Positions 3,910 to 25,470 of a DNA stretch of 32,000 nucleotides are shown in pieces. The notes below the pieces were generated by a model. That model was not told the DNA's origin. It saw only the letters and a list, made by a program, of their open reading frames with translations, and ran no database searches. A program made the translations under genes and the position numbers. Each line of letters begins with the position of its first letter. Within the stretch, counting starts at the first letter, position 1. The DNA is from Novilysobacter ciconiae. Lineage in GTDB: Bacteria > Pseudomonadota > Gammaproteobacteria > Xanthomonadales > Xanthomonadaceae. Location of the stretch: the NCBI RefSeq assembly GCF_015209725.1, contig NZ_CP063656.1, positions 2,483,328-2,515,327 on the forward strand, read 5' to 3'.

Positions 3910-3973
3910 TCCTGATTTGTTCCGATTGGATTCGCTGCCAGCCTTCCGTTTGTTTCGGAAGGCCGGCGCTGCG

Positions 3974-6900
3974 TCACTTCCCGCCCAGTACGCCACTCAC
4001 GCCGACGTAGCCGCCGGTGCCTTCGCGGTTGGACGAGAAGCCGCCCTCCAGGCTCCAGCGTCCGTTGTCGGCGGTACGCCGCAGGCTGACGCCGACAGCG
4101 CCTTCACCCTTGTAGGCTCCGAAACCTGCGTAGTAAGTCGTCGCCCCGGCCACGTAAGGCGCCTGCCGCATCGACATTGCGGTCGCGATGCCGGCGTTGA
4201 GGTCACGCTCGAGCCCGTCGATCCGCTGGCCCAGGTCCCACACATCCCCGTGGATCTGGCTGAACCGCTGATCGGTGTAGTTGTTCGCGGTAATTACCGC
4301 GTGATCCACACCGGCACTGAGCTGGTTGACGTTGACGGCGTCGTTGCCGGCCACGCCCGGAGCGACCCCACTGATGGTGCGGTTGCCGACGTTGACCTCG
4401 CCCGACGAGTTGCTGGTGCCCACGTAGGCCGCGTCGTAACCGGACTGGGCGCCCACGGTCGTCGCCGACCCTTGGCCCAGCGCCACGCTGTTGTCGTGCG
4501 TGGCCTTTGCGCCTTGGCCGACCGCGGTGCTGTTGGAACCGGCGGCCACGGCGTGGTTACCCAGCGCGGTGCTGTTGTCACCGCTGGCGTCCGCGCCGCT
4601 GCCGCCGGCCGCAGAGTTGGCTCCGGTCGGGGTCGGCGGGACGATCGGGGCTTCCTGGCTGACCTGGAACGGACCGGTCGAACCCTCCTCCAGGTTTGTC
4701 ACACGGCTGCTGTTGTCGACGATGTTGGAGGCCAGGTCGTTGAGCTGGCCCACGTTGGCCGCATCGGTGTCAGCCACACCCGCCGCGACGTTGCCGATGA
4801 CCTGGCCGCCGGCATCAACGCCATCGGTGGTCACACTCGGGCCACCCTCGATCACCAGGCCCGTATCGCCCAGGTGCACGTCGTCGCCCACGTGCACGCC
4901 GTCGGTATCGACCACGGTGTCGCCGGCAGTGAGGCTGTCGACGTCCAGGTCACGGTTGAGGGTGATCTCGATCTGGCCGCGGTTGTCCGCGCCCGTCTGG
5001 GCTACGGTGATGTTCTGGTCGCCGGTGAAGTTCACCGTGCCGTTGGGGCCGATGTTGGCGTCATTGCCGTTGGCATCGGTCGCCGTCCAGCCCGCGTTGG
5101 CGGCCTCGTTCGCCGATCGGATCGCATCGTCAATATTGTCGTGACCGGTGCCGCCGATGTCGCTGGTGGTGATGGTGCCGTCCGGGTTGAGCCCGGCGTT
5201 GCCACCAATCACGTTCACGATCGACTGACCCATCCCGTGGAGCTGGCTGCCGTTGATGGCATCCGTGCTGGTGGCACTGACATCACCCGCCGCCACGTTG
5301 GTGATTACCAAGGTGCCCGCGTCGATACCGCTCATTGTCACGCTTGGCCCGCCATTGATCACCAGGCCGGTGTTGCCGAGGTGCACGTTGCCGCCCACCG
5401 CAACGCCGGCGGTGTCGATAGCGGTATCGCCAACGGTGACGCTGTCCACGTCGATATCACGGTTAAGGGTGACGGCGATCACACCGTCCTGGTCATCGCC
5501 TGTCTGGGCGACGGTGATGTTCTGGTCACCCTGAAAGTCCACCGAACCGTTTGGCCCGATATTGACCTGGTCGACGCCGGAACCGGTCAAATTCCACCCC
5601 GCGTTGACCGTCTGGTTTACAAGAACAAGTTGCTCCTCGGTCGCCGCACGGCCGGAACCATCGGCGAACCCCGGATAGTTGATTGTCTGGTTCTGCAGGC
5701 CACTGATCGTACCGGCGTTACCGCTGATCAGGATCGGACTGGCGCCGCCCACCACGATGACATCGCCCCCGATGGTGGTCGTGCCCGCTGTGTCGGTCAC
5801 CGCGACGGTGCCCGCACCCACAACGGTACTGTTGCCGTCGGCGTCGCTCACCGACGCGCCATCCGCGGTCAGGCTCGCCACCTTGCCGGCGCCATCGTCC
5901 ACCGCCAGACCATCGTTGTTCACCACGGTGTCGCCGGTGGTCAGGCTGCCGTCCGAGCCCAGGTCGATGTTCTCGGCCAGGTCGAAGGTGACGTCGTTGC
6001 TGTCGTCGGCCTTGGTGATGACGATGTTGCCGTCGGCGTTGGTCAGGTCGACCGAATTGCCAGTCGGGCTGTTGACGCCCACGTTGGTGGCGTTTGCCCC
6101 CTGAGCGCTGACATTCCAGCCAGAGTTGGCTATGCCATGGACCACTCGAAGCTGGTCTTCCGTCGCCGCCTGGCCGCTGGTGTAGTTGTTAGGGTCGAAC
6201 GTGGTGTTGGTCAGCCCGCCGATGGTGCCGGCGTCGCCGTTGATCACGATCGGGTTGGCCCCACCCACCGAGATCTCGTTGCCACCGATCGTCGTTGTGC
6301 CGGCAGCGTCGGTCACCGCAATCGCACCGGCACCCACGGTAGTGTTGTTGCCTGCGCCGTCATCAACCGCCAGACCGTCGTTGTTCACCACGGTGTCGCC
6401 CGTGGTCAGGCTGCCGTCCGCGCCCAGGTCGATGTTCTCGGCCAGGTCGAAGATGAGGTCGGTGCCGTTGCGCGCGATGACGATATTGCTGTCGGTGTTG
6501 CTGAAGTCGACCGAACCGCCTGGTGCTACGTTGGCGCCCGTCACCTCGCCGTTTGCCCCTACCGCCCAGCCTTGCGCGGCGTACTCGATCGCGTCATGCA
6601 CCGTGCCCTTTCCGGTGCCGCCGACATTGCTCATCGTGACCTGATGCGTGTCGGGATCGAATACCGCGTTGCCGCCCAGCACGTCGGCAATCGAGTCGCC
6701 TGCGGCATCCAGGTCATCGGCCAGCGATTCCAGCGCCATGTTGGTGCCGTGCAGCTGGCTGCCGTTGATACCGTCGGTGCTGGTGGCGCTGATGCGGCCC
6801 GCTGCAAGGTTGGTGAGAGTGCGCTCGGCACCCGCGGCGCCAACACTGACGGTCGCCACCGGGGTGGTGCCGGCGAAGTTGTAGGTGTTTTTGTCGACCG

Positions 6901-12721: not shown

Positions 12722-12779
12722 ACGCGGCGTGGTGGCGCGCGTGAGCCCGACCGCGTTCCCGCGCCAGGACGCGACCACG

Positions 12780-13493
12780 ATGGCGGACGACGGCGATGAG
12801 CTGACGTTCTGCTCGACCTGCGCGTTCTCCCAGGCCTGCCTGGCCGAGGGCATGGACAAGCGCTCGCTGATGGACCTGCACGTGCTCGTCGAGCACGTCG
12901 GTCCCTTCCACGCCGGCGAGCACATCTTCCGCGAGGGCGACCCCTTCGAGGCGATCGCCGCGGTCCGCGCCGGCACGGTCAAGACCTACATGATCGACCG
13001 CGACGGCCGCGAGCACGTGCTCGGCTTCCACCTGCCCGGCGAGGTCATCGGCCTGGACGCGATCGACGGCGAGACCTACCCGTGCAACGCGGTCGCGCTG
13101 GATACGGCGATGCTGTGCCGGTTCTCGTTCCCGAAGATCGCGGTGCTGGCGACCAAACTGCCGGGACTGCAGCGCCACCTGTTCCGGCTGCTCAGCCGCG
13201 ACATCGGCCGCGCCGCGCTGCTGGCCGGCGACTGGTCGGCCGACCAGCGTATGGCGGCGTTCCTGATCGGCCTGTCGCGGCGGCTGGCGGCGCGTGGCTT
13301 CTCGGCGCACCGCTTCCAGTTGACGATGGCGCGCACCGACATCGCCAACTACCTGCGCCTGGCACCCGAAACGGTCAGCCGCGTGCTGCGCCGCTTCCAG
13401 AAGGACGGCCTGCTGATGGTCGATCGCCGCGAAGTGGAACTGCTGGACCGCGACCAGTTGGCCGCGCTCGCCGACCCGATCCTGCACCGCTGA
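12780..13493 (+). CDS. fnr: FNR/Anr-type oxygen-sensing Crp/Fnr-family transcription factor
   Basis: N-terminal Cys cluster FCSTCAFSQAC (C-x2-C-x5-C) plus a central Cys in YPCNAVAL. cNMP-binding-like fold. C-terminal HTH RTDIANYLRLAPETVSRVL. The ATG at 12780 is preferred over the track's GTG at 12729 by analogy with the spacing of the Anr/FNR N-termini. Confidence 0.9.
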   Translation: MADDGDELTFCSTCAFSQACLAEGMDKRSLMDLHVLVEHVGPFHAGEHIFREGDPFEAIAAVRAGTVKTYMIDRDGREHVLGFHLPGEVIGLDAIDGETYPCNAVALDTAMLCRFSFPKIAVLATKLPGLQRHLFRLLSRDIGRAALLAGDWSADQRMAAFLIGLSRRLAARGFSAHRFQLTMARTDIANYLRLAPETVSRVLRRFQKDGLLMVDRREVELLDRDQLAALADPILHR

Positions 13494-13809: not shown

Positions 13810-16107
13810 ATGGAACCAAAGAGCGTGCAGATAACGAGGCGACTATGGCTGGGCCTGGGGGCCCTGCTCATCGTCAGTTTCGGAATCATGTTGTGGATCG
13901 GCAAGGACCTGTACCAGACGGCGCCGCCGATGCCCGAGCAGGTGGTCACCGAAAGTGGCGAGGTGCTCTATACCAGGGCTGACATCGAGGCCGGACGACG
14001 CGTCTGGCAGGAGATGGGCGGTCAGCAGAGCGGCTCGATCTGGGGCCACGGGGCGCTCGTCGCTCCCGACTGGTCGGCCGAGTGGCTGCACAAGGAAGTC
14101 GTGGCGATGCTCGACATCCGCTCGCGGATCGAGTTCGGCATGCCCTACGAGCAGCTCAACGAGAGCGAGCAGGCCAAGCTGCACGCGGAGATCAAGCCCG
14201 AGATCCGGGCCAACACCTACGATCCCCAGACCGGCTCCATCGTGGTCAGCGACGAGCGCGCGCAGGCGATCTCGCAGGTCGCCGCGCACTACATGAGCGT
14301 GTTCTCCAACGATCCGGCCACGCATGAACTGCGCGAGGCCTATGCGATCCGCGAGAACCCGGTGCCCGACGAGAACAGCCGCCGCCTGATGACCGGCTTC
14401 TTCTTCTGGGCCTCGTGGGCGACCGTCACCAACCGGCCCGACGACGTCAAGTCCTACACCAACAACTTCCCGCACGAACCGCTGGTGGGCAACGTGCCCA
14501 CGTCCAGCAGCTTCATGTGGTCGATGTTCTCGATCCTGTTCATGATCGCCGGCATCGGCTTGCTGTCGTGGCACTACGCCGCGTATCACGGCAAGGAAAA
14601 GCCGCTGGCGCCGCCGTCCCAGGATCCCGCGCGGGCGATCGTGGTGACCCCGTCGATGCGCGCCACCGCCAAGTACTTCTGGCTGGTGATGGCGCTGTTC
14701 CTGGTGCAGATCCTGATGGGCGCCACCACCGCGCACTACCAGGTCGAGGGCCAGGAGGCCTACGGGTTCGCCCTGTCCGAGTGGCTGCCGTATGCGGTCA
14801 CCCGCAGCTGGCACACGCAGCTCGCGATCCTGTGGATTGCGACCGCGTGGCTGGCCACCGGCCTGTACCTGGGGCCGGCGATTTCCGGGCATGAGCCGAA
14901 ATACCAGAAATTCGGCGTCAACTTCCTCTTCATCAGCCTGATCATCATTGTCGTGGGCGCGTTTGCCGGCCAGTGGATGGCGGTGATGGGCAAGCTGGGC
15001 AAGATCCCGAACTTCTGGTTCGGCCACCAAGGCTGGGAATACGTCGACATCGGCCGCTTCTGGCAGATCTACCTGTTCATCGGCCTGATGCTGTGGCTGA
15101 CCCTGGTCGGTCGCGCCCTGTGGCCGGCGATGCGGGCCAAGAACCAGACGTCCTCGATCGCGGGCCTGCTGTTCCTGTCCACCGTGGCCATCGGCATCCT
15201 CTACGCCGCCGGCCTGATGTGGAAGGAAAACACCCACATCTCGATCGTCACCTACTGGAAGTTCTGGATCGTCCACCTTTGGGTGGAGGGCTTCTTCGAG
15301 GTGTTCGCCGTCGCGGTGATCAGCTTCATCTTCGTCAAGCTCGGCCTGGTGCGCGGGCGCTCGGCGACGATCAACGTGCTGTTTGCGACCATCGTGTTCA
15401 TGGCCGGCGGCGTGCTGGGCATGTTCCATCACCTGTACTTCGCCGGTGTCACCACCGGGGTGATCGCGCTGGGTGCGAGCATTTCCGCGCTGGAAGTGGT
15501 GCCACTGGCCTTGATCGGCCTGGAGGCGCACGAAACCTGGAAGAGCAGCCGCGCCACGCCATGGATGCAACAGTACAAGTGGCCGATCATGTTCTTCCTG
15601 GCGGTCAGCTTCTGGAACCTGATCGGTGCGGGCCTGCTGGGCTTCCTGATCAACACCCCGCTGGCGTTGTTCTACATGCAGGGCACCAACCTGACCGCCG
15701 CCCACGGCCATACCGCGCTGTTTGGCGTGTACGGCATGCTCGGCATCGGCCTGATGCTGTACTGCCTGCGTGGCCTCAAGCCGGACCTGGTCTGGCGCGA
15801 GGGCCTGCTGCGCAGCGGCTTCTGGGCGCTCAACATCGGCCTGCTGCTGATGATGACGCTGACCCTGCTGCCGATGGGCGTGCTGCAGCTGGAAGCCAAC
15901 CTGGAGAACGGCTACTGGTACGCACGTTCGGCCGAGTTCATGACCCGTCCGATCATCGACGTGCTGGTCTGGCTGCGGGTGCCGGGCGATACGGTCTTCG
16001 CTGCCGGTGCCTTCATGATCGCGCTGTTCGTGCTCTCGCTGTGGCTGGGGCCACGGCGGGCACGCGAGCCGATCGCCGGCGTGCTGGAGACCGAGTCGAG
16101 CCTCTGA
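13810..16107 (+). CDS. norB: quinol-dependent nitric oxide reductase (qNOR / NorZ-type long NorB)
   Basis: 765 aa. One N-terminal TM helix plus a ~250-aa hydrophilic extension with no CxxCH motif, followed by a 12+ TM heme-copper-oxidase-like core (HHLYF, AHGHTALFGVYGM). This length and architecture are typical of single-subunit qNOR. Confidence 0.9.
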   Translation: MEPKSVQITRRLWLGLGALLIVSFGIMLWIGKDLYQTAPPMPEQVVTESGEVLYTRADIEAGRRVWQEMGGQQSGSIWGHGALVAPDWSAEWLHKEVVAMLDIRSRIEFGMPYEQLNESEQAKLHAEIKPEIRANTYDPQTGSIVVSDERAQAISQVAAHYMSVFSNDPATHELREAYAIRENPVPDENSRRLMTGFFFWASWATVTNRPDDVKSYTNNFPHEPLVGNVPTSSSFMWSMFSILFMIAGIGLLSWHYAAYHGKEKPLAPPSQDPARAIVVTPSMRATAKYFWLVMALFLVQILMGATTAHYQVEGQEAYGFALSEWLPYAVTRSWHTQLAILWIATAWLATGLYLGPAISGHEPKYQKFGVNFLFISLIIIVVGAFAGQWMAVMGKLGKIPNFWFGHQGWEYVDIGRFWQIYLFIGLMLWLTLVGRALWPAMRAKNQTSSIAGLLFLSTVAIGILYAAGLMWKENTHISIVTYWKFWIVHLWVEGFFEVFAVAVISFIFVKLGLVRGRSATINVLFATIVFMAGGVLGMFHHLYFAGVTTGVIALGASISALEVVPLALIGLEAHETWKSSRATPWMQQYKWPIMFFLAVSFWNLIGAGLLGFLINTPLALFYMQGTNLTAAHGHTALFGVYGMLGIGLMLYCLRGLKPDLVWREGLLRSGFWALNIGLLLMMTLTLLPMGVLQLEANLENGYWYARSAEFMTRPIIDVLVWLRVPGDTVFAAGAFMIALFVLSLWLGPRRAREPIAGVLETESSL

Positions 16108-16131
16108 CCGGCCCGACTGCTGACAAGTGAA

Positions 16132-16156
16132 GGGGCGGCTCAGGCCGCCCCTTTTT
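16132..16156 (+). terminator. rho-independent terminator after norB
   Basis: GGGGCGGC (16132-16139), loop TCAG, GCCGCCCC (16144-16151), then TTTTT (16152-16156). Confidence 0.85.
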
Positions 16157-16216
16157 CATGCGCGTGGTTTCATGCGCCTGCTTGTATCTGCACGCTCATG
16201 CAAGCGCGCTCATGCA
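16154..16216 (+). promoter_or_regulatory. cluster of four TCATGC words just upstream of the nnrS promoter
   Basis: TTTCATGCGC at 16154-16163 and 16168-16177. GCTCATGCA at 16194-16202 and 16208-16216. Each pair is spaced 14 bp apart. Confidence 0.3.
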
Positions 16217-16226
16217 CGCCGCCCGG

Positions 16227-16240
16227 CTGACCCAGGTCAA
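16227..16240 (+). promoter_or_regulatory. FNR/Dnr-like box upstream of nnrS (weaker match)
   Basis: CTGACCCAGGTCAA (8/10). It shares the CCAG spacer with the norB and ccoN boxes. -10-like CACACT at 16263-16268 (32 nt centre-to-centre). nnrS ATG at 16276. Confidence 0.45.
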
Positions 16241-16275
16241 TAACGCCAGCACCCATCAAAGGCACACTGACGCCC

Positions 16276-17508
16276 ATGGACAATCATCCCGAACCCAGGC
16301 CCGCTGCGCTCTCGCCGGGCCGACTTGCCATCGCACCGCACCGCCTGATGTTTTTCATCGGCTCGATGAACCTGCTGATCGCCATGGCGTGGTGGGCGGC
16401 CTGGCTGGTGGGTGCCCGTTGGCCCGATCTGGCCATACCGCAGGCACCGCTGCATACCGGCTGGGTGCACGCCTTCGTGATGCAGTACCAGGTGCTGCCG
16501 AGCTTCTTCTTCGGCTTCCTGCTGACCACCTTCCCGAAATGGCTGGGCCTGCCGGACATCGACCGCTGGCGCTACGTGCCCGTCGGGCTGGGCATCTTTG
16601 GTGGCCAGATCGCGACCCTGCTGGGTGCGCTGGGCTGGGAGGCCGGGATCATCGTCGGGGCCCTGATGACCGCCGCTGGCTGGCTCGCCGGCCTGACGGT
16701 GATGGCGCCGCTGCTGTGGCGCGAGAGCGGCACCACCTGGCATGCGCGTTCGTGCTTCGCCGCGCTGTGCCTGGGCTTCCTCGGCGTGCTGGCCTGGGGT
16801 GCCTACGTCCTGGGCGCCTCGCCAATCTGGGTTTTCGCCAGCATCAAGATCGGCAGCTTCGGGCTGCTGCTGCCGGTGTATTTCACCGTGGCGCACCGGA
16901 TGTTCCCGTTCTTCGCCAGCCGGGTCGTGCCCGGTTACCAGCCGTGGCGGCCGATGTGGCTGCTGGCCGCGGCCTGGCCGCTGTTTATCGGCCATTTGCT
17001 GCTGGAGCTGTTTCATTTCTACGGCTGGCTGTGGCTGGTCGACCTGCCCCTGCTGGCGCTAACGGCGACAATGGTGTGGCGCTGGTGGCCACGCGGAAAG
17101 AATCCGGGCCTGCTGTCGGTGCTGTTTGTCGGCCTGTCGTGGTTGCCGCTGGCATTCGCGCTGTATTCGGCCCAGAGCATCAGCTACGCCATCACCGGCG
17201 TGTACTGGCTGGGTCGAGGCCCGGCGCATGCGCTGTTCATCGGATTCTTCGGCAGCATCCTCATCGCGATGGTGACCCGGGTCACCGAGGGGCACGCCGG
17301 CCGGCCGTTGACGATGTATCCGGCGGCCTGGTTCGCCTTCGTCGCGATCCAGCTGGTGGCGGTGATCCGCGTCGCAGCAGAGGTTTTTCCCGACAGCACG
17401 GCCTGGCAGGCAGTCGCCGCGGTGGGCTGGCTGGCCGCCTTCCTGCCCTGGGTCGCCCATGTGGGGCGGATCTATCTGGCCCCACGCTCCGACGGCCGTC
17501 CGGGCTGA
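16276..17508 (+). CDS. nnrS: NnrS-family heme/copper membrane protein (NO-stress associated)
   Basis: 410 aa and about 12 predicted TM helices. The N-terminal APHRLMFFIGS segment, conserved His residues, and overall length and topology fit the NnrS family. It sits directly downstream of norB. Confidence 0.8.
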   Translation: MDNHPEPRPAALSPGRLAIAPHRLMFFIGSMNLLIAMAWWAAWLVGARWPDLAIPQAPLHTGWVHAFVMQYQVLPSFFFGFLLTTFPKWLGLPDIDRWRYVPVGLGIFGGQIATLLGALGWEAGIIVGALMTAAGWLAGLTVMAPLLWRESGTTWHARSCFAALCLGFLGVLAWGAYVLGASPIWVFASIKIGSFGLLLPVYFTVAHRMFPFFASRVVPGYQPWRPMWLLAAAWPLFIGHLLLELFHFYGWLWLVDLPLLALTATMVWRWWPRGKNPGLLSVLFVGLSWLPLAFALYSAQSISYAITGVYWLGRGPAHALFIGFFGSILIAMVTRVTEGHAGRPLTMYPAAWFAFVAIQLVAVIRVAAEVFPDSTAWQAVAAVGWLAAFLPWVAHVGRIYLAPRSDGRPG

Positions 17509-17527
17509 GTCACGCACAGGAAACCCC

Positions 17528-17929
17528 ATGATCGAGTTCTACCCGCAAATCAAAAGCATCCACATCGCCATGGCCATCACCAGCGGGCTGATCTTTGCCC
17601 TGCGCGGAGCCGGCGTGCTGGCCGGCATGCGCTGGCCGCACTGGCTGCCGGTGCGCTGGACCAGCTACACCGTGGATACCGCGCTGCTGACCGCTGCACT
17701 GATGCTGCTGACCATGCTGCCGGGCGCGATGTTCGCCAACGGCTGGTTGACGGTGAAACTGCTGCTGCTCGTCGTCTACATCGTGCTGGGCGTGTTTGCG
17801 ATCAAGCGCGGCCGCACCCGCCTGGCCAAGGCGGGTTTCTACGTCGCCGCCCTTGTCACCTTTGGCATGGTCTATTCGATCGCGCGCGCGCACAGCCCGT
17901 GGGGGTTCCTCAATGCCTTCCTCGGCTGA
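17528..17929 (+). CDS. SirB2-like small integral membrane protein
   Basis: The track ORF 17459-17929 is probably over-extended; the ATG at 17528 gives MIEFYPQIKSIHIAMAITSGLIFALRG... About 133 aa with four hydrophobic helices, SirB-family-like. It starts 19 nt after the nnrS stop. Confidence 0.65.
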   Translation: MIEFYPQIKSIHIAMAITSGLIFALRGAGVLAGMRWPHWLPVRWTSYTVDTALLTAALMLLTMLPGAMFANGWLTVKLLLLVVYIVLGVFAIKRGRTRLAKAGFYVAALVTFGMVYSIARAHSPWGFLNAFLG

Positions 17930-19928
17930 GCGGGCCGCTGCCGCGGGTTCCGGCAACGCCCTGGCCCTCGCCGCCAGCACCCCCGGGGTCGCCGATCCGG
18001 ACCGGCCGATGCTCGATGCGTTGTTCCTTGGCCCCTACGGCGAGAACGACACCCTGCTGGAAAAGCTCGTCGTGGAGTTCCTGCGCGACCACGTCTACTG
18101 GCGGCGCAACTTCCACCCCGAAGACCCGCCGGCGATCCCGACCCACGCCGCCCAGCATCCCGACTACAAGGCGTTCGAGTCGCGCCTGCGGCGGGAACTG
18201 CACCAGCTCTCCGCCTCGCTGAAGCGCTCGGTGCCCTTCCACAGCCCGCGCTACATCGGCCACATGGCCTCCGACCTGCTGCTGCCCGGCCTGGCGGCGC
18301 AGATCCTCACCCTGCCCTACAACCCCAACAACGTCAGCGAGGACGCGGCCCCCGTCACCATCGACCTGGAAGTCCAGGTCGGGCTGCAGCTGGCGCGGAT
18401 GCTCGGCTACCCCGATGACACCGACCGCCCCGACTGCGCGTTCGGCCACCTGACCTCCGGCGGCACCGTCGCCAACTACCAGGCGCTGCGCCTTGCCTTG
18501 GCACTGAAGGCGTTTCCGGTCGCCCTGCGTGCCGCCCAGGTGCCGGGTTTGGCGCTGCCGGCCGATGACTGGGAGGCATTCAACCTTGGCCCGGACGCCG
18601 GCATCGAGCTGCTCGGCCAGTGGCAGCTCTGGCTGGCCGGGCAACCCGCGCGCGATCGCCGGCGGTGGCGCGACGCGGTGCAGACCCAGCGCCTGGAGCA
18701 TCTGGGGATGGTGGAGTTCTTCGCCCGCCACCGTGACCTCAAGGTGCCGCTGGTACTGGCCCCGATCACCGCCCACTACTCCTGGAGCAAGGGCCTGAAG
18801 CTGCTCGGCCTGGGCCGGGAACAACTGCGCCTGTTGCCGGAAAAAGGCATGCGTCTGGATGCGCAGGCGCTGGAGCAGACCCTGGAGCAGTGCCGGCGCG
18901 AGCGCCAGCCGGTGCTGATGACCGTCGCCGTGCTGGGCACGACCGAGTACGGCACCGTCGACCCGGTGGATGCGGTGGTCGACCTGCGCGATCGGTTCCA
19001 GACCCTGGGGCTGGGCTTCAGCGTGCACGTCGACGCCGCCTGGGGCGGCTACCTGGCGACCCTGTTCCGCAACCCCGACGGCAGCCTGCGGGGCATCGAC
19101 GAGGTCCGCGCCGGCTTCGCCCATTTTCCCCAGCCCGAAGTGCACGCCGCGTTCGCCGCACTGGGCCGCACCGACTCGGTCACCGTCGACCCGCACAAGC
19201 TGGGCTACCTGCCCTACGGCGCCGGTGCGTTCATCTGCCGCGACCACCGCGCCACCGCGCTGCTGGCGGAGGCTGCCGACTACGTCTTCCACGACACCCG
19301 CGCCACCGACTACCTCAGCCGCTACCGCCGACTTGGCCAGTTTGTCCCGGAAGGCTCCAAGTCCGGGGCGGCCGCCGCGGCGGTGTATGTCACCCACAAG
19401 GTGCTGCCGCTGGACCACGCCAACTTCGGTCGCCTGCCGCGGCAGACGGTGCTTGCCGCCGAAGCGTTCCACGCCCGCGCCGAACGCCTCGCCGTGGAGC
19501 TGGATGGCATCGCCCGCGTCACCGTGCCTTTCGCGCCCGACAGCAACCTGGTGTGCGTGGCCATCAACCCGACCGGCAACGCGGACCTCGCACGGGCCAA
19601 CGCCTTCGTCCGCCGCCTGCACGATGAGCTGCGCGCCGACGCCAGCCAGCCCCTCCAGCTCAAGCAATTCTTCGGATCGATGACGACCCTGCGCCCGGAG
19701 GCCCTCGGCGAGACGGAGATGAACCGGATCCTGACGCAGTTGCAGCTGGACCCTGCGACACTGGTCGATGACGACGAGGACACCGATGCCGATCGGCTGG
19801 TGATCCTGCGTCACACCCTGATGAACCCGTATCTGATCGATCACGAGAACGGCATCAGCTACATCGACCTGTATCTGGCACACCTGGGCCGAAGGATCCG
19901 GGCGTTGCTGGGGAGCCCAAGCCCATGA
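17913..19928 (+). CDS. group II PLP-dependent amino-acid decarboxylase, long Enterococcus-TyrDC-like form
   Basis: LDALFLGPYGENDTLLEKLVVEFLRDHVYWRRNFHPEDPPAI and PRYIGHMASDLLLPGL resemble, from memory, the N-terminal region of bacterial tyrosine decarboxylases. Also FGHLTSGGTVANYQAL and the PLP-lysine motif SVTVDPHKLGY. Start at ATG 17913 overlaps the sirB-like gene by 17 nt; ATG 18009 is the alternative. Confidence 0.8.
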   Translation: MPSSAERAAAAGSGNALALAASTPGVADPDRPMLDALFLGPYGENDTLLEKLVVEFLRDHVYWRRNFHPEDPPAIPTHAAQHPDYKAFESRLRRELHQLSASLKRSVPFHSPRYIGHMASDLLLPGLAAQILTLPYNPNNVSEDAAPVTIDLEVQVGLQLARMLGYPDDTDRPDCAFGHLTSGGTVANYQALRLALALKAFPVALRAAQVPGLALPADDWEAFNLGPDAGIELLGQWQLWLAGQPARDRRRWRDAVQTQRLEHLGMVEFFARHRDLKVPLVLAPITAHYSWSKGLKLLGLGREQLRLLPEKGMRLDAQALEQTLEQCRRERQPVLMTVAVLGTTEYGTVDPVDAVVDLRDRFQTLGLGFSVHVDAAWGGYLATLFRNPDGSLRGIDEVRAGFAHFPQPEVHAAFAALGRTDSVTVDPHKLGYLPYGAGAFICRDHRATALLAEAADYVFHDTRATDYLSRYRRLGQFVPEGSKSGAAAAAVYVTHKVLPLDHANFGRLPRQTVLAAEAFHARAERLAVELDGIARVTVPFAPDSNLVCVAINPTGNADLARANAFVRRLHDELRADASQPLQLKQFFGSMTTLRPEALGETEMNRILTQLQLDPATLVDDDEDTDADRLVILRHTLMNPYLIDHENGISYIDLYLAHLGRRIRALLGSPSP

Positions 19929-21076
19929 GTCCCGACGCATTCCATCCAGGCAATGACTTCCTCCCGGCCAGCGCGGCCAGGCCGCCGGCCACCGTCTGTG
20001 ACAGCGCGACGATGCGCAGCTGGACCGCGCGGGCCCTGTTGTGCCTGCGCCAGGAGGCGGCGCGTTCGGCGGACACCCACCTGCTGCGGCTGGAGTTTCC
20101 CGGCTTCCCGGGCATCGAGTTCTACTTCAAGGACGAGGCGGCGCATCCCACCGGCAGCCTGAAGCATCGGCTGGCCCGCTCGCTGTACCTGTATGCGCTG
20201 TGCAATGGCCGGCTCAGCCCGGGCCAGCCGGTGGTGGACGCGTCCTCGGGCAGCACCGCGATCTCCGAGGCGTGGTTCGCACGACTGCTCGGCCTGCCCT
20301 TCACCGCGGTGATGCCGACCGCGACCGCACCGCGCAAGATCGCCGACGTGCATGCGCTGGGCGGCCACTGCGACCTGGTCGACGATCCCGCGCAGGTGCA
20401 CGAGCGCGCCGCCTGGCATGCCGCCAACGGCGCGTGCCACCTGGACCAGTTCGGCCTCGCGGAGCGCGCGACGGACTGGCGCGGCAACAACAACATCGCC
20501 GAGTCGATCATCGGCCAGCTGGCCTGCGAGCCGCACCCGCAGCCGGCGTGGATCGTCTGCGGCGTCGGTACCGGCGGCACCTCGGCAACGATCGGGCGCT
20601 ACATCCGCTACCGCGCGCTGGAGACCGGCCTGTGCGTGGCGGAACCGGCCGGCAGCGCCTTCGTGCACGGCTGGCGCACGCGCAACCGCAGCGCGATCGC
20701 CAGCCAGCCGACCGCCGTCGAAGGCATCGGCCGGCCGAGGGTGGAGCCGGGCTTCCTGTTCGAGGTGGTGGACGAGGTGATCGAGGTGGCCGACGCCGCC
20801 TCCGTGGCCGCGATGCACCTGCTGGAAGAGCAGCTGGGCCGTCGCTACGGCGGCTCGTCGGGGACCAACCTGGTAGCGTGCCTTGAACTGGCTGCGCGGA
20901 TGCGCGCCGCCGGCGAGCGCGGCAGCATCGTCAGCCTGTTGTGCGATCCCGGCGAGCGCTACGACCAGACGCTGTACGACCCGGCGTGGCTGGCCGAGAA
21001 CGGCATCGACCCGGCCCCGGCGCAGGTCGCGTTGCGCGCCACGCTGGCCAGCGGCGAATGGCATCCGACCAGCTGA
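19925..21076 (+). CDS. PLP-dependent cysteine-synthase/CBS-fold (beta-replacement or beta-elimination) family protein, function unknown
   Basis: 383 aa. PLP-lysine region KDEAAHPTGSLKHRLA, SSGSTAIS, glycine loop GVGTGGTSATIG, and SSGTN near the C-terminus. The ATG overlaps the decarboxylase stop (ATGA at 19925-19928). Confidence 0.8.
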   Translation: MSPDAFHPGNDFLPASAARPPATVCDSATMRSWTARALLCLRQEAARSADTHLLRLEFPGFPGIEFYFKDEAAHPTGSLKHRLARSLYLYALCNGRLSPGQPVVDASSGSTAISEAWFARLLGLPFTAVMPTATAPRKIADVHALGGHCDLVDDPAQVHERAAWHAANGACHLDQFGLAERATDWRGNNNIAESIIGQLACEPHPQPAWIVCGVGTGGTSATIGRYIRYRALETGLCVAEPAGSAFVHGWRTRNRSAIASQPTAVEGIGRPRVEPGFLFEVVDEVIEVADAASVAAMHLLEEQLGRRYGGSSGTNLVACLELAARMRAAGERGSIVSLLCDPGERYDQTLYDPAWLAENGIDPAPAQVALRATLASGEWHPTS

Positions 21077-21094: not shown

Positions 21095-21137
21095 GGGCCG
21101 GTTCAGGCCGGCCCGGGCCGATCAGAGCCCGGGCCGG
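21095..21137. terminator. GC-rich overlapping hairpins between convergent genes (candidate bidirectional terminator)
   Basis: GGGCCGG (21095-21101) pairs with CCGGCCC (21108-21114). CCCGGGC (21112-21118) pairs with GCCCGGG (21127-21133). No clear U-tract follows. Confidence 0.35.
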
Positions 21138-21148
21138 TGTCGAAGCAC

Positions 21149-21769
21149 TCAGTGCGCGACGTGCTCCCCGCCGGTCTTCGCATCGCTGAATTCCGGATCG
21201 TCGAACAGCCGCGGATAGTCCGCCAGCGCCGCGCTCATGTCGGCAACCGGTGCCGGATCGGCCGGATCGGCGTGGAGGGCTTCGGCCCCCGCCATCAGCC
21301 GGGCGAGGACGCCGTGCAGGGCCACGTCGGGCTCCGCCTCCAGTTTGCAGTTGGCGAACATGTACGCCGCCGCCTCGTCCACCTGGGTGGCCAGCTGATC
21401 GACCTGGGTATCGTTCAGGTGTCCCATCTGGTGGTGATGCAGGCCGGCCATCGCCTCGCGCATGCGGCGCATGCCTTCCATCAGCGGCGCGTCGGGCTCC
21501 CATTTGACGTGGTCGGCCGGGATCGGCATCACCGCTGCTTCGGGGTGATGGTCGGCATGGGCGTGGGTGTCGCGCTTTTGGGTGTCGTGCGCGTGGGTGT
21601 CTTGCGCGTGGCTGCCATGCGCTTGCGCCGCCGCCGTCTCAGGCTTGGCCTGCTCGTGCTCGGCGTGGCTGTGCGTCTTGTCCTGCGCCTGGGCGGCCGA
21701 CGGCGCGATTGCCGCGCCGAGTCCGATCGCGGCAGCGAGCGCAACGGCCAAAGTGGTCTGTGTCTTCAT
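21149..21769 (-). CDS. secreted histidine-rich protein of unknown function (possible periplasmic metal-binding protein)
   Basis: The track ORF 21149-21982 is over-extended. AAGGAG lies 9 nt upstream of the ATG at 21769. Signal peptide MKTQTTLAVALAAAIGLGAAIAPSAAQA. Then a His-rich tract HSHAEHEQ...HGSHAQDTHAHDTQKRDTHAHADHH, and later HHHQMGH. The gene starts 32 nt downstream of fabB. Confidence 0.7.
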   Translation of the reverse strand: MKTQTTLAVALAAAIGLGAAIAPSAAQAQDKTHSHAEHEQAKPETAAAQAHGSHAQDTHAHDTQKRDTHAHADHHPEAAVMPIPADHVKWEPDAPLMEGMRRMREAMAGLHHHQMGHLNDTQVDQLATQVDEAAAYMFANCKLEAEPDVALHGVLARLMAGAEALHADPADPAPVADMSAALADYPRLFDDPEFSDAKTGGEHVAH

Positions 21770-21801
21770 ACGATCCATCTCCTTGAAAAACGGGGGCGCA
21801 A

Positions 21802-23037
21802 TCAGACCCGCGCGAACACGAGGCTGGCGTTGGTACCGCCGAAACCGAAGCTGTTGGACATCACCGTGTCCAGCGTCGCATCGCGGCTTTGCTGCACGAT
21901 CGGGAAGCCTTCCACGCGCGGGTCCAAGGTGTCGATGTTGGCCGAGCCGGCCATGAAGCCCTCGCGCATCATCAGCAGGCAATAGATCGCCTCATGCACG
22001 CTGGCGGCGCCAAGCGAATGGCCGCTGAGCGCCTTGGTCGACGAAAGCGGCGGCACGTCGTCACCGAACACGGTGCGGATCGACTGCAGCTCGACCACGT
22101 CGCCGACCGGCGTGGAGGTGCCGTGGGTGTTGAGGTAGTCCACCTTGCCGACCGGGGTGCCGTGGATGCCGGCCATGGCCATCTGCATGCAGCGCACCGC
22201 ACCCTCGCCCGAGGGGGCGACCATGTCGACGCCGTCGGAGGTCACGCCGTAGCCAACCAGCTCGGCAATGATGTTCGCGCCGCGGGCGACGGCGTGCTCG
22301 TACTCCTCCAGCACCAGCATGCCGCCACCACCGGCGATGACGAAGCCATCGCGGTCCGCGTCGTAGGGACGCGAGGCCTTTTCGGGAGTGTCGTTGCGCT
22401 TGGTCGACAGTGCGCCCATCGCATCGAACTGCGAGGTCATGCCCCAGTGCAGCTCCTCGCCGCCGCCGGCAATGATGATGTCCTGCGCGCCGTGGCGGAT
22501 CAGGTCCGCCCCGGCGCCGATGCAGTGCGCTGAGGTCGCGCAGGCAGCGGAGATCGAATAGCTCAGGCCGCGGATACCGAACGCGGTCGACAGCGTCGCC
22601 GACACGGTCGAACCCATCGTGCGCGGCACCATGTACGGGCCCACCTTGCGCACGCCGCGGTTGCGCAGCAGGTCGCCGGTCTCGATCTGCCACTGCGGCG
22701 ATCCGCCACCCGACCCGGCGATCAGCCCGGTGCGCACGTCGCGCACCTGCTCGTCGCTGAGGCCGGCATCGGCAATCGCATCGCGCATCGCGACGTAGGC
22801 GAACCCGGCCGCGTCGCCCATGAAGCGCTTCACCTTGCGGTCGATCTCCTCGGTGAGATCGATCTGCGGCTCGCCGGCGACCTGGCTGCGCAGGCCCAGT
22901 TCGGCGTACTCGGGAATGAAGCGGATACCCGGGGTGCTGCTGCGCAACGCCGCGGTCACGCTGGTCTGGTCGTTGCCCAGGCAGGACACGATGCCCATGC
23001 CGGTCACCACCACGCGCCTGTTTGCCACACCGCCCAT
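21802..23037 (-). CDS. fabB: 3-oxoacyl-ACP synthase I
   Basis: The track ORF is over-extended; ATG at 23037 gives [22 protein letters not shown]. Active-site [44 protein letters not shown]. It starts 2 nt after the fabA stop. Confidence 0.92.
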
Positions 23038-23039
23038 GC

Positions 23040-23555
23040 TCAGAACCCCTCCGTCGAGGTGAACAGTCCCACCCGCAGGTCCGAGGCCACGTAGATCTCG
23101 CGCCCGTCCACCAGGGTGCGGCCGTCGGCGATCACCAGTTCCAGCTTGCCGCGCATGACCCGGCGGATGTCCAGTTCGTAGGTCACCAGCTTCGCATCGG
23201 GCAGCACCTGGCCGCTGAACTTCACCTGGCCCACGCCCAGCGCGCGACCGCGGCCGGGGGCGCCCAGCCACGGCAGGTAGAACCCGCACAGTTGCCACAT
23301 GGCGTCCAGCCCAAGGCAGCCGGGCATGACCGGATCGCCCTCGAAGTGGCACGGGAAGAACCACAGGTCCGGGCGGATATCCAGCTCGGCGCGCACGAAA
23401 CCCTTGCCGTACTTGCCACCCTCGGTGCTGATCTCGGTGATGCGATCGAACATGAGCATCGGCGGCGCCGGCAGTCGCGCGTTGCCGGGGCCGAACATCT
23501 CGCCGCGGGCGCAGGACAACAACTGCTCGCGATCAAAGGAAGAAGGTCGATTCAT
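23040..23555 (-). CDS. fabA: 3-hydroxydecanoyl-ACP dehydratase/isomerase
   Basis: ATG at 23555 gives a 171-aa protein [39 protein letters not shown]...[24 protein letters not shown], the FabA signature. Confidence 0.92.
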
Positions 23556-23946: not shown

Positions 23947-25470
23947 ATGAAGCGCAAGACCATCTACGTGATACCGCTGCTGGCGGCTCTGGCATTGGCA
24001 TTGCCAGGCTGCGACCGCTCCGGCCCCGCCACCGACAACGCGTCCGCCGGCGCCAGCCAGGACAGGATCGTCGGCTCGCGCAAGGGCGACTTCGGTCCGC
24101 CGCAGGGCGAGCCGGTCAACGCGATCCTGACCAGTCCGCCGATGGTGCCGCCGGCCACCGGGCGCACCGCGCCGGCCAAGGTGATCGTCGAGCTGGACGT
24201 GATCGAGAAGGTCATGCCGATCTCCGAGGGCGTGGACTACACCTTCTGGACCTTCGGCGGCACCGTGCCGGGCAGCTTCATCCGCGTGCGCCAGGGCGAC
24301 ACGGTCGAGTTCCACCTGCGCAACATGCCCGACAGCAAGATGCCCCACAACATCGACCTCCACGGCGTCACCGGTCCGGGCGGCGGCGCCGCATCCAGCT
24401 TCACCGCGCCCGGCCACCGCACCCAGTTCACCTTCAAGGCGCTCAACGCCGGCCTGTTCGTCTACCACTGCGCAACCGCGCCGGTCGGCATGCATATCGC
24501 CAACGGCATGTACGGCATGATCCTGGTCGAGCCGCCGGAGGGCCTGCCCGAGGTCGACCGCGAGTACTACGTGATGCAGGGCGATTTCTACACCACCGGC
24601 AAGTACCGCGAGAAGGGCCTGCAGCCCTTCGACATGGAAAAGGCGATCGACGAGAACCCGACCTACGTCCTGTTCAACGGCTCGGAAGGCTCCACCACCG
24701 GTGACAACTCCCTGACCGCGAAGGTCGGCGAGACCGTGCGCATGTACGTCGGCAACGGCGGCCCCAACCTGGTGTCGAGCTTCCACGTCATCGGCGAGAT
24801 CTTCGACAAGGTCTGGTACGAGGGCGGCACCAACTACCAGGAAAACGTGCAGACCACGCTGATCCCGGCGGGCGGCGCGGCGATGATGGAGTTCCACCTG
24901 GAAGTCCCCGGCAGCTACGTGCTGGTCGACCACAGCATCTTCCGCGCCTTCAACAAGGGCGCGCTGGCGATCCTCAAGGCCGACGGCCCGGAGAACAAGG
25001 CGATCTACTCGGGCCTGGAAGTCGACGAGATGTACATCGGCGATCGCGCCGGCGACAGCCTGGGCGCGGTGGCGGTGGCGGCCAAGGCCGAGGCCAGCGG
25101 CGAGCTGACCGTCGAGGAGCAGATGGCGGCGGGCAAGGAACTGTTCATGGGCACCTGCTCGACCTGCCACCAGGGCAACGGCGAGGGCATGGCCGGCGTG
25201 TTCCCGCCGATCGCGGCCTCGGACTACATCAAGGCCGATCCGAAATCGCTGCCGCGGGTCATCCTGCACGGCCTGCAGGGCAAGGTCACCGTCAACGGCG
25301 AGGACTACGACTCGATCATGCCGCCGATGAATCAGCTCACCGACGACGAGGTGGCCAACATCTCCACCTACGTGCTCAACAGCTGGAACAATCCGGGCGG
25401 CAAGATCAGCAAGGAAGAGGTTGCCGAAATCCGCAAGCAGAAGCCGGCCAACGCCTCGGCGGGCCACTGA
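23947..25470 (+). CDS. nirK: copper-containing nitrite reductase with a C-terminal class I cytochrome c domain (three-domain NirK); possible lipoprotein
   Basis: The track ORF starts too early. ATG at 23947 gives [22 protein letters not shown] (lipobox-like LPGC). Type-1/type-2 Cu ligand motifs [10 protein letters not shown] and [18 protein letters not shown]. About 110 extra C-terminal residues carry the heme-c motif CSTCHQ and a distal IMPPM. Confidence 0.92.

Follow-up and report, generated by a model that had tools for sequence, protein, structure and literature searches.

Four same-strand genes, nnrS-sirB-DC-PALP, lie behind an FNR/Dnr-type box in the 32,000-nt stretch of Novilysobacter ciconiae DNA analysed here (the window). 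They encode an NnrS protein, of a haem/copper membrane protein family found in NO-stress regulons, a SirB-type small membrane protein, a group II decarboxylase and a fold-type-II PLP enzyme, the last two being called DC and PALP at both gene and protein level (Table 1). An earlier note on this sequence had proposed a single operon behind the box, and the measurements at all three junctions agree with it. The nnrS stop (TGA 17506-17508) is separated from the sirB start (ATG 17528) by 19 nt, the sirB stop (17927-17929) lies 17 nt into DC if ATG 17913 is its start, and DC and PALP share an ATGA at 19925-19928. The sirB/DC overlap depends on the start codon chosen; an alternative ATG at 18009 would leave a 79-nt gap after sirB, and conservation among DC homologues begins only at residue ~34. 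Sequence features favour ATG 17913: a GGGGG stands 8 nt upstream, G+C content at third codon positions (GC3) is 0.84 across the 32 extra codons, and the N-terminus that it specifies is also kept in Novilysobacter antarcticus.

GC3 is of coding type in all four genes (0.87-0.92). A terminator scan gave hits at chance level only (4 found versus 3.4 expected) and none inside the operon, in line with the earlier claim that no hairpin precedes 21095, and a sigma-70 promoter scan detected nothing. The canonical terminator after norB (63-nt folded stretch, MFE -29.9 kcal/mol, z = -2.4) sets that gene apart from the nnrS operon. The hairpin 3' of PALP (74-nt folded stretch, MFE -41.2 kcal/mol, z = -2.4) has no U tract after its stem, lies between the operon and a convergent His-rich gene and is probably a bidirectional terminator. 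With junctions of +19, -17 and -4 nt, no internal terminator and a terminator on either flank, the four genes are predicted to make up a single transcription unit, and both the operon and its membership in an FNR regulon are well supported.

Table 1. Features of the nnrS-sirB-DC-PALP locus (window coordinates)
Feature	Position	Strand	Details
fnr, Crp/FNR-family regulator	12729..13493	+	cNMP_binding, HTH_Crp_2 and Crp domains
Intrinsic terminator after norB	16129..16157	+	11-bp GC-rich stem, UCAG loop, U tract; canonical
FNR/Dnr-type box, cTGACCCAGGTCAA / CTGACCCAGGTCAA	16227..16240	.	centre ~42 nt 5' of nnrS ATG
nnrS	16276..17508	+	410 aa; PF05940, 191.7 bits, full length; GC3 0.87
sirB/ychQ-family small membrane protein	17528..17929	+	133 aa; PF04247, 103 bits, full length
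DC, TyrDC-like group II PLP decarboxylase	17913..19928	+	671 aa from ATG 17913; PF00282 plus TyrDC C-terminal domain PF21391
PALP, Cds1-family fold-type-II PLP enzyme	19925..21076	+	383 aa; PF00291, 166 bits; PLP lysine in GSLKHR
GC-rich hairpin 3' of PALP (probable terminator)	21100..21146	+	core stem ~12 bp, 21107-21138

The FNR/Dnr-type box and the low-oxygen island

The box has one mismatch to TTGAYN4RTCAA. Eight such boxes occur in the window versus 1.2 expected, a number reached in 0 of 100 shuffles, and others stand upstream of hemN, norB, nirK and ccoN. The product of the window's fnr gene scores 204 bits against the PRK11161 Fnr model (cut-off 228), and its translation carries the FNR cysteine pattern C-x2-C-x5-C (FCSTCAFSQAC) with a later Cys in AMLCRF, making it the likely trans-factor for these boxes. 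The predicted site fits FNR as well as a Dnr/NnrR paralog and cannot distinguish between them; several relatives have a second Crp/Fnr gene.

Around the operon lie hemN, fnr, qnorB (norB), fabAB, nirK-cytochrome c and a cbb3 oxidase. Across about 170 loci sampled for comparative genomics, the cluster is conserved throughout Xanthomonadales within a low-oxygen island of this kind (hemN, fnr, norB, nirK, fabAB, cbb3, often ubiD/ubiUV), so that the expected synteny of the two PLP genes with nnrS and sirB is indeed found in related genomes. DC lies no more than ~8 kb from hemN, fnr, norB, nnrS or nirK in 42 of 63 Xanthomonadales loci, and the Rhodanobacter version of the operon is without nnrS and begins at norB. 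The earlier note knew of no described link between these enzymes and denitrification genes; we likewise found none in the searchable literature, nor any description of the nnrS-sirB-DC-PALP association.

The regulatory site is conserved with the genes. In 25 of 28 orthologous loci, nnrS has the same CTGAY-N4-RTCAA box in the 150 nt before it. A DC gene detached from sirB is preceded by a box of its own in 32 of 41 loci, compared with 1 of 36 for DC directly following sirB (expectation from box density, 0.077), and PALP standing alone has one in 7 of 17. Boxes are also found 68 nt upstream of DC in Kangiella, 130 nt upstream in another gammaproteobacterial genome (L088), and upstream of hemN-DC in Natronospira. 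Judged by these predicted sites, the FNR box tracks the first gene of the unit through rearrangements. What the boxes indicate is a tie to low-oxygen (FNR) control at large, with no specificity for NO or denitrification.

Family assignment of the two PLP enzymes

PALP aligns with positions 1-353 of the 354-position Cds1 model NF052478 at 467.5 bits (equivalog cut-off 600), as opposed to 80-102 bits for the TIGR cysK, cysM and cysKM models and 137 bits for PRK10717 'cysteine synthase A', whose cut-offs are 344-394. Its Asn loop reads SSGSTA instead of TSGNTG. The AlphaFold2 model (pLDDT 79) finds CmnB, O-acetylserine sulfhydrylase, CBS and SbnA as top Foldseek matches. Of the original description as a CysK-like enzyme, the fold and the unusual SLKHR lysine context stand; the family is that of the Cds1 desulfhydrase, and assignment as CysK/CysM was rejected on these scores. 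Sequence comparison makes PALP a divergent paralog of Mycobacterium tuberculosis Cds1, and SLKHR would be a hallmark of the Cds1 family, with GSLKHR verified among its Xanthomonadales members only. A second Xanthomonadales subfamily, with the same catalytic motifs, scores 535-546 bits on the Cds1 model. M. tuberculosis Cds1 has been shown to convert cysteine to H2S and pyruvate, with a Km for cysteine of 11 mM (PMC8389258), which leaves some doubt that cysteine is the true substrate of even the type member. Membership of PALP in this family favours H2S release, the second idea of the earlier note.

It is highly improbable that the two genes are housekeeping enzymes placed here by chance, PALP as a second CysM-like cysteine synthase and DC as a catabolic decarboxylase, with no link to anoxia. 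Homologues are annotated 'cysteine synthase A/B' in sources and the fold is that of CysK, but the CysK/CysM scores and the Asn loop argue otherwise, the FNR box stays with the genes through rearrangements, and the anaerobic context recurs in several gammaproteobacterial lineages.

DC was correctly recognized as a long TyrDC-like member of the group II decarboxylases, which turn amino acids into amines. It aligns over the full length of TIGR03811 at 314 bits, about a third of the cut-off (905), its best solved structure by sequence is Lactobacillus brevis TyrDC (5hsi, 287 bits), and its identity to characterised TyrDCs is about 30%; it does not rank as a TyrDC equivalog. The DPHK motif contains Lys429, and K429, H288, D374, T344 and Y435 are conserved. 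Relative to the L. brevis enzyme (LbTDC), the pocket is predicted to carry N100A, T103L, Y331W, M505L and S586T, all staying hydrophobic.

Homology to TyrDC raises the idea of a role in acid or nitrite stress, with DC consuming cytoplasmic protons under nitrite or free nitrous acid, as CadA, AdiA, GadB and TyrDC do, while PALP detoxifies excess cysteine. Degradative decarboxylases are induced anaerobically at low pH, and the cluster occurs directly after norB in acid-tolerant, denitrifying Rhodanobacter. We regard this as decidedly unlikely: no amino-acid/amine antiporter was found among the conserved neighbours of DC, SirB being the sole conserved membrane partner, and denitrification itself uses up protons.

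Linked and separate occurrence of DC and PALP

PALP lies immediately downstream of DC, with a gap of at most 100 nt, in 42 of 76 loci. Viewed from PALP, DC is immediately upstream in 32 of 66 loci and absent from the locus neighbourhood in the other 34, and about a third of Xanthomonadales DC loci have no PALP nearby. The slot after sirB may hold either gene (both sirB-PALP and sirB-DC occur), and one locus (L164) has sirB-PALP with an ATGA overlap of its own and no DC. A close relative (L091), with ~90% amino-acid identity and the gene order of the window, retains only the last ~45 DC codons, which by sequence comparison are a deletion remnant in an island otherwise kept. In some loci the order of the two genes is reversed, with an unrelated gene between them. 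DC homologues of 45-48% identity occur without PALP in anaerobic gene clusters of four or five other gammaproteobacterial lineages, beside fnr/nrdDG, narK-nnrS-narXGH, narL-narK, hemN/fnr or moaA/moeA/fnr/hemN. A gene missing from such a locus may sit elsewhere in its genome. As far as gene content at the loci can tell, DC and PALP are separable, independent accessory modules, often but not necessarily behind sirB: the cluster as a whole, whose co-occurrence the earlier note proposed to check, is conserved in Xanthomonadales, and at many loci one of its two PLP genes stands without the other.

These arrangements bear on the two-step route first suggested for the pair, in which PALP would use beta-replacement to build a beta-substituted alanine, such as an S-substituted cysteine, and DC would decarboxylate this product to the corresponding ethylamine. 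Beta-replacement is common among CysK-fold enzymes, as the nearest structures (CmnB, SbnA and O-acetylserine sulfhydrylase) recall, the hydrophobic DC pocket could take S-alkyl or S-aryl cysteines, and the high Km of Cds1 leaves room for another PALP reaction. The close spacing of DC and PALP also speaks for such a route, and the ATGA coupling, present in the window and about half of the relatives, would fit a functional pair. As an obligatory route it is not supported and we consider it quite unlikely, given that either gene alone can fill the same slot, that one was deleted in L091, that distant DC homologues keep the anaerobic context without PALP, and that order and adjacency are at times broken.

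Other neighbours raise the possibility of an oxygen-independent supply route, in which DC, with or without a TyrA-like partner, would provide tyramine or a related amine as precursor of something otherwise made only with O2, PALP being an unrelated neighbour. A divergent prephenate-dehydrogenase (TyrA)-like gene immediately follows DC in ~8 Rhodanobacteraceae loci, overlapping it by 4 nt in four (L040, L045, L046 and L053), and follows PALP in 3 more; ubiD comes after PALP in 29 loci, and ubiU/V-like U32 genes do so in 16-20. Such a route would parallel hemN, ubiUV, fabAB and nrdDG of the same islands. In several gammaproteobacterial lineages DC is surrounded by genes for O2-independent replacement functions, and DC standing alone has its own FNR box. 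The proposal is nevertheless unlikely: DC has no conserved downstream tailoring genes beside it and was cleanly lost from a close relative whose island is otherwise intact, and we are aware of no O2-dependent process whose place a tyramine-type amine would take.

A probable low-oxygen unit and its relation to known systems

We lean, with modest confidence, towards nnrS-sirB-DC-PALP being one unit of the low-oxygen regulon that joins NO/anaerobic membrane proteins to two independent PLP enzymes, best read as an 'H2S plus arylamine under anoxia/NO' module. The earlier note had offered such a module as its alternative; the Cds1 match favours its H2S release, the regulatory link being a general low-oxygen one. 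The data establish which families the genes belong to, how the operon is arranged, that the box is conserved and how often synteny holds; the in vivo regulation, the substrates of both enzymes and the physiological purpose we infer as follows. As O2 falls and NirK starts making NO, FNR or a Dnr-like paralog would bind the box, and all four genes would be co-expressed, the last two junctions being translationally coupled. At the membrane, NnrS and SirB would support NO tolerance and anaerobic respiration. The most likely PALP reaction would be beta-elimination of L-cysteine, or of a closely related S-substituted compound, giving sulfide, pyruvate and ammonia; the sulfide might serve Fe-S repair or persulfide chemistry, or its release might lower free cysteine. 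DC, whose predicted pocket is hydrophobic and TyrDC-like, is presumably a genuine PLP decarboxylase and would most likely release an arylethylamine (tyramine-type) and CO2 and consume a proton.

Each component has characterised relatives. NnrS of Vibrio cholerae and Rhodobacter sphaeroides shares PF05940 and likewise belongs to a regulon that responds to NO or to low oxygen (for NorR of V. cholerae, PMC3345576), whereas the window gene has a predicted FNR/Dnr-type box, not NorR control, and is the first gene of an operon that also encodes two PLP enzymes. Pseudomonas aeruginosa SirB2 (PA14_RS04555) and E. coli YchQ belong to the same PF04247 four-helix inner-membrane family as the window protein. 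A sirB2 mutant of P. aeruginosa loses fitness specifically when it respires nitrate anaerobically (PMC12721095), in agreement with the anaerobic context here; that gene is monocistronic beside oprG with reported Vfr/AmrZ control, whereas the window sirB is a hinge gene followed by DC and/or PALP. M. tuberculosis Cds1 (Rv3684) is likewise a fold-type-II PLP enzyme, and its start codon, too, overlaps the preceding gene's stop. Rv3684 follows rv3683, while PALP shares an FNR-box operon with nnrS and sirB, falls under the Cds1 equivalog cut-off and belongs to a separate Xanthomonadales subfamily; given the Km, the reference function is itself soft. With the Enterococcus and Lactobacillus TyrDCs (LbTDC 5HSI/5HSJ, EfTDC 7CWX), DC shares the long (~620-670 aa) group II architecture and C-terminal domain, and the counterparts of PLP Lys392, His241, Asp328, Thr298, Tyr398 and Ser440 are conserved. 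It differs in the pocket, where A295L adds to the substitutions above, and in its setting, where an anaerobic-respiration context with a predicted FNR box takes the place of a tyrP antiporter and an acid-stress operon. CyuA is an Fe-S enzyme that degrades cysteine anaerobically, and CadA and AdiA are anaerobically induced fold-type-I group III/IV decarboxylases. These E. coli/Salmonella proteins offer a functional analogy only, in anoxia-switched sulfide release from cysteine and amino-acid decarboxylation; their families are unrelated to PALP and DC, their regulators are different, and CadA and AdiA have dedicated transporters.

Operon layout and predicted control by an FNR-type box

The genes for NnrS, a SirB/YchQ-family membrane protein, a TyrDC-like group II PLP decarboxylase (DC) and a Cds1-family fold-type-II PLP enzyme (PALP) lie on the same strand between the terminator after norB and the hairpin after PALP, with short or overlapping junctions, and a scan between these two elements found no internal terminator above chance. 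This is the arrangement of a single transcription unit. The 19-nt gap between nnrS and sirB and the ATGA overlap of DC and PALP at 19925-19928, both proposed in an earlier note made from the sequence, were reproduced. Its 17-nt overlap between sirB and DC holds if ATG 17913 is the start of DC, which is the sole soft point among the junctions. The alternative start, ATG 18009, would leave a 79-nt gap after sirB, and homologues of DC can be aligned only from residue ~34; on the other side, the 32 extra N-terminal codons have a G+C content at third codon positions (GC3) of 0.84, are preceded by GGGGG and are kept in Novilysobacter antarcticus. GC3 is 0.87-0.92 for the four genes. A sigma-70 promoter scan gave no sites, which is weakly informative given 67% genomic G+C and promoters that depend on activators.

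Features of the window, with profile scores where available
Feature	Positions	Strand	Remarks
OmpA/BamE-domain protein	3034-3996		downstream of adhesin; unrelated to operon
Trimeric autotransporter adhesin, 2014 aa	3974-10018	-	ESPR signal, YadA head and stalk repeats; unrelated to operon
FNR-type regulator gene	12729-13493	+	C-x2-C-x5-C and a later Cys, the [4Fe-4S] FNR pattern
NorB, quinol-type NO reductase	13810-16107	+
Canonical terminator after norB	16129-16157
nnrS box, CTGACCCAGGTCAA	16227-16240		one mismatch to TTGAYN4RTCAA
NnrS	16276-17508	+	PF05940, 191.7 bits (cut-off 28), full length
SirB/YchQ-family membrane protein	17528-17929	+	PF04247, 103.1 bits (cut-off 30.9), full length
DC, group II PLP decarboxylase, 671 aa	17913-19928	+
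PALP, fold-type-II PLP enzyme, 383 aa	19925-21076	+
GC-rich hairpin after PALP	21107-21138		core stem ~12 bp
His-rich secreted protein	21149-21778	-	no Pfam family; signal peptide MKTQTTLAVALAAAIGLGAAIAPSAAQA, then H-x-H repeats
fabB	21802-23022	-	anaerobic unsaturated fatty-acid synthesis
fabA	23040-23555	-	anaerobic unsaturated fatty-acid synthesis
Three FNR-type boxes	23613, 23774, 23824		shared fabA/nirK intergenic region
nirK-cytochrome c fusion	23947-25470		divergent from fabA-fabB; followed by FGE-sulfatase-domain protein and SCO1/SenC

Eight FNR/Dnr-type boxes (TTGAYN4RTCAA) occur in the window, against 1.2 expected. Apart from the one at nnrS, they precede hemN, norB, nirK and ccoN, and a further one falls in the fabA-nirK interval; together they mark the window as a low-oxygen island. 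The island holds hemN, fnr, norB, the nnrS operon, fabB-fabA, the nirK-cytochrome c fusion, the FGE-sulfatase-domain protein, SCO1/SenC and ccoNOP. The gene for the His-rich protein is just downstream of fabB and convergent with the operon; its listed ORF extends to 21982 and overlaps the 3' end of fabB. Homologues of this protein were found around DC in 31 of 83 loci, and it may be a periplasmic metal (perhaps copper) chaperone for the NirK/NnrS neighbourhood.

A TTGAT-N4-ATCAA-type promoter box conserved across orthologous loci, as in FNR/Anr/Dnr-type regulons, was found at nnrS, where a box lies at most 150 nt upstream in 25 of 28 loci. Where DC directly follows sirB, only one of 36 loci has a box no more than 300 nt from the conserved core of DC, and where DC is detached from sirB, 32 of 41 loci have a box upstream (expectation from locus-wide density, 0.077 per 300 nt). 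Boxes also lie 68 nt upstream of DC in Kangiella and 130 nt upstream in a presumably gammaproteobacterial locus (L088), and in Natronospira one precedes hemN-DC. Solitary PALP genes carry a box in 7 of 17 cases. This distribution, in which the box goes with the first gene, is the strongest evidence that the four genes of the window are co-transcribed from the nnrS promoter, and it makes DC, and less clearly PALP, predicted regulon members in their own right.

Two further features of the nnrS box were observed. In nearly all loci, ~42 nt separate its centre from the predicted ATG downstream (16227-16276 in the window, and orthologous loci), so that a class II FNR geometry (-41.5) would imply either a leaderless mRNA or a true nnrS start at the downstream Met25. 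Its first half-site is consistently CTGAY and not TTGAY, unlike those of the norB and hemN boxes.

Predicted chemistry of the two PLP enzymes

DC matches PF00282 with 85.4 bits (Pfam gathering score 27) and, at residues 535-651, the TyrDC-specific C-terminal domain PF21391 with 32.6 bits (27.2). Its best solved relatives are Lactobacillus brevis TyrDC (LbTDC; 5HSI/5HSJ), a fungal aromatic amino-acid decarboxylase and Enterococcus faecalis TyrDC. The Schiff-base lysine of the D-P-H-K motif (K429, in VDPHKLGY), the histidine that stacks on PLP (H288; LbTDC H241) and the aspartate to the pyridine nitrogen (D374; LbTDC D328) are all invariant in our alignment of DC with homologues. Mapping through the structure-match alignment showed that the counterparts of LbTDC K392, H241, D328, T298, Y398 and S440, among the functional residues described for that enzyme (PMC4904194), are conserved. 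In the substrate pocket Y398, H98, M99, S101 and M588 are kept, and N100A, T103L, Y331W, M505L, S586T and A295L are changes that leave it hydrophobic. The conserved catalytic counterparts and hydrophobic pocket thus predict that DC is able to catalyse decarboxylation, with an aromatic or hydrophobic amino acid as its probable substrate. Its product is most likely an arylethylamine. A role as aldehyde synthase was considered and rejected, since that reaction needs O2 and DC has Tyr at the position of LbTDC Tyr398, where pig DDC has Phe.

DC is nevertheless not a TyrDC orthologue: it aligns end to end with the TIGR03811 equivalog, though at 314.2 bits it does not reach the cut-off of 905.3. The operon contains no permease, and the conserved neighbours at 83 clustered genome loci showed no tyrP-type antiporter either. 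A tblastn search of plasmids returned only homologues of 30-33% identity with no useful context (lactic acid bacterial tdc genes, at ~30%, and decarboxylases of Rhizobium and Aliiroseovarius). In one protein of the DC family in the alignment (P0253, 35% identity) DPHK is replaced by APHT, and the loss of the PLP lysine may have left this relative without catalytic activity.

PALP scores 166.5 bits against PF00291 (cut-off 35), and its AlphaFold2 model (pLDDT 79.3, pTM 0.80) matches CmnB in the PDB (Foldseek E = 1e-21), O-acetylserine sulfhydrylase and SbnA (target-normalised TM 0.74-0.83), and CBS. All top PDB matches have 21-28% identity, and neither sequence nor fold searches of the PDB separate a synthase from a desulfhydrase. 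Assignment as CysK/CysM was rejected on the scores for TIGR01139 (91 bits, cut-off 351), TIGR01138 (80, cut-off 394) and TIGR01136 (102, cut-off 344), as was the PRK10717 'cysteine synthase A' family (137 bits, far below cut-off). The substrate-carboxylate 'asparagine loop' reads A-S-S-G-S-T-A, not T-S-G-N-T-G, and SLKHR takes the place of SVKDR around the lysine.

The best family by far is Cds1, a placement made with the NCBIfam profile NF052478: PALP is collinear with profile positions 1-353 of 354 over its full length, at 467.5 bits against an equivalog cut-off of 600. Five PALP homologues of the DC-linked subfamily score 462-474 bits, and a second Cds1-like subfamily of Xanthomonadales scores 535-546 bits and shares the motifs GSLKHRLARSL, SSGSTA, ERATDWRGNNNIAESI, GTGGTSAT and EGIGRPRVE with PALP. 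Members of this second subfamily, closer to the M. tuberculosis enzyme, also occur no further than 2-3 kb from DC, in some cases on the other strand (L019:4909-6012, -; L069:4835-6037, -; L061:6562-7680, +). Cds1 (Rv3684) of M. tuberculosis forms H2S and pyruvate from cysteine, for which its Km is 11 mM, and conversion of L-cysteine to H2S, pyruvate and NH3 has been demonstrated only for that protein (PMC8389258). By family resemblance, the most likely reaction of PALP is that of Cds1, the release of sulfide from cysteine.

Association and separation of DC and PALP across genomes

Homologues of DC and PALP with at least 74% identity are found throughout Lysobacteraceae and Rhodanobacteraceae, and the window is closest to Lysobacter sp. 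H21R4 and N. antarcticus. We compared 82 loci centred on DC (80 species genomes and two others), scoring partners only at the locus and counting loci with enough flank. PALP is immediately downstream of DC in 42 of 76 loci and anywhere in the locus in 48 of 76; sirB is immediately upstream in 36/73 and nnrS upstream in 27/69. A low-oxygen marker (hemN, fnr, norB, nnrS or nirK) is present in 42 of 63, and of the 54 loci with full flanks 13 lack every partner. Rhodanobacter has the order norB-sirB-DC-PALP, without nnrS. Among 80 metagenome loci centred on PALP, DC is immediately upstream in 32 of 66, and the remainder include nnrS-sirB-PALP and norB-sirB-PALP operons; at L164 sirB and PALP share an ATGA overlap. 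At a metagenome locus with ~90% amino-acid identity to the window and an identical order from hemN to nirK (L091), ~1.8 kb is deleted and DC is a pseudogene remnant of its last ~45 codons between sirB and PALP (L091:6774-7000). Assembly artefacts were considered as the source of loci with one gene missing, and the idea was dropped; these loci turn up repeatedly in isolate genomes (e.g. L040, L045, L052 and L077).

The earlier note had suggested a two-step pathway in which PALP makes a beta-substituted alanine and DC decarboxylates the product. As an obligate route this is disfavoured because DC and PALP are reciprocally independent, each being found without the other, though a missing partner could lie elsewhere in the genome.

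More distant homologues of DC (45-48% identity) keep anaerobic company. DC neighbours fnr and nrdDG in Kangiella (L084), lies in narK-nnrS-DC-narXGH in Microbulbifer (L085), narL-narK-DC in Paraglaciecola (L086) and hemN-DC-fnr in Natronospira (L087), and neighbours moaA, moeA, fnr and hemN in L088; neither sirB nor PALP adjoins it in any of these five loci. Two non-gammaproteobacterial contexts were uninformative. In a 7.5-Mb genome (L089:1339-8980) a thioredoxin gene immediately precedes the DC homologue, which lies near genes for a rhodanese-metallo-beta-lactamase fusion and a YeeE/YedE-type sulfur transporter, a sulfur context and not an anaerobic one.

Other genes are linked to DC or PALP in some lineages. 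A divergent gene for a TyrA-like prephenate dehydrogenase (~260 aa, HPLFGP catalytic motif; L046:9929-10723, L040:9926-10714, L045:9905-10690) is just downstream of DC in ~8 Rhodanobacteraceae loci, and it follows PALP in L031, L037 and L060. In L040, L045, L046 and L053 its start and the stop of DC share 4 nt. Its place beside DC points to tyrosine as the DC substrate and hints that the supply of tyrosine or 4-hydroxyphenylpyruvate is tied to DC; the gene could provide an O2-independent tyrosine route.

In 29 loci (e.g. L001:11070-15306, L049:9949-11463) PALP or DC is followed by a same-strand ubiD gene (691 bits against NF008175, cut-off 788), often with two U32-peptidase genes of the UbiU/UbiV type, known from O2-independent ubiquinone synthesis, behind it (20 and 16 loci). 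A link of DC and PALP to ubiquinone synthesis was dropped, as the block is absent between PALP and the terminator hairpin in the window and no chemistry connects the two enzymes to that pathway.

Possible roles and relation to known systems

The best supported reading is a low-oxygen operon of FNR type that hinges on sirB, with DC, PALP or both as optional modules behind it. NnrS is a member of NO regulons (PMC3345576), and mutation of sirB2 in Pseudomonas aeruginosa leads to NADH accumulation and impairs anaerobic nitrate respiration; ubiquinone-9 does not rescue the mutant (PMC12721095). In anoxic cells, sulfide might be used for Fe-S repair or NO-thiol chemistry, and amine formation might serve proton consumption, scavenging of reactive nitrogen species or precursor supply.

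A bolder proposal, which we regard as unlikely, is that DC belongs, widely conserved and so far unrecognised, to the anaerobic (FNR) regulon of Gammaproteobacteria and has a dedicated role in anoxic or nitrosative physiology. In one version, DC and PALP would clear NO-damaged species from the free amino-acid pool: DC would decarboxylate phenolic amino acids of the 3-nitrotyrosine type, and cleavage of S-nitrosocysteine or surplus cysteine by PALP would, alongside NnrS, keep dinitrosyl-iron formation low. In another version, DC would supply a tyramine-derived molecule needed only without O2. Should DC and PALP prove to be plain tyrosine and cysteine catabolic enzymes, the finding reduces to a regulon annotation.

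The roles of H2S and biogenic amines are poorly understood in nitrogen-oxide-respiring bacteria. Here a compact, conserved and probably FNR-controlled operon places a Cds1-type, probably sulfide-releasing enzyme and a TyrDC-like enzyme directly behind NO reductase, NnrS and SirB in environmentally important denitrifiers (Lysobacter, Thermomonas and Rhodanobacter). It offers a direct genetic handle on the interplay of NO and H2S, on SirB/YchQ function and on a decarboxylase subfamily whose members keep to anaerobic gene neighbourhoods across Gammaproteobacteria, and since its parts are separable, single-gene phenotypes should be readable. Our searches found no literature that ties DC or PALP to nnrS, sirB or denitrification, and among the matches listed for tyrosine decarboxylase, denitrification and Fnr no paper was relevant or mentioned tyrosine decarboxylase. 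DC and PALP are new subfamilies of known families; what is undescribed so far is the operon itself and the tie, across lineages, of a TyrDC-like enzyme to the anaerobic regulon.
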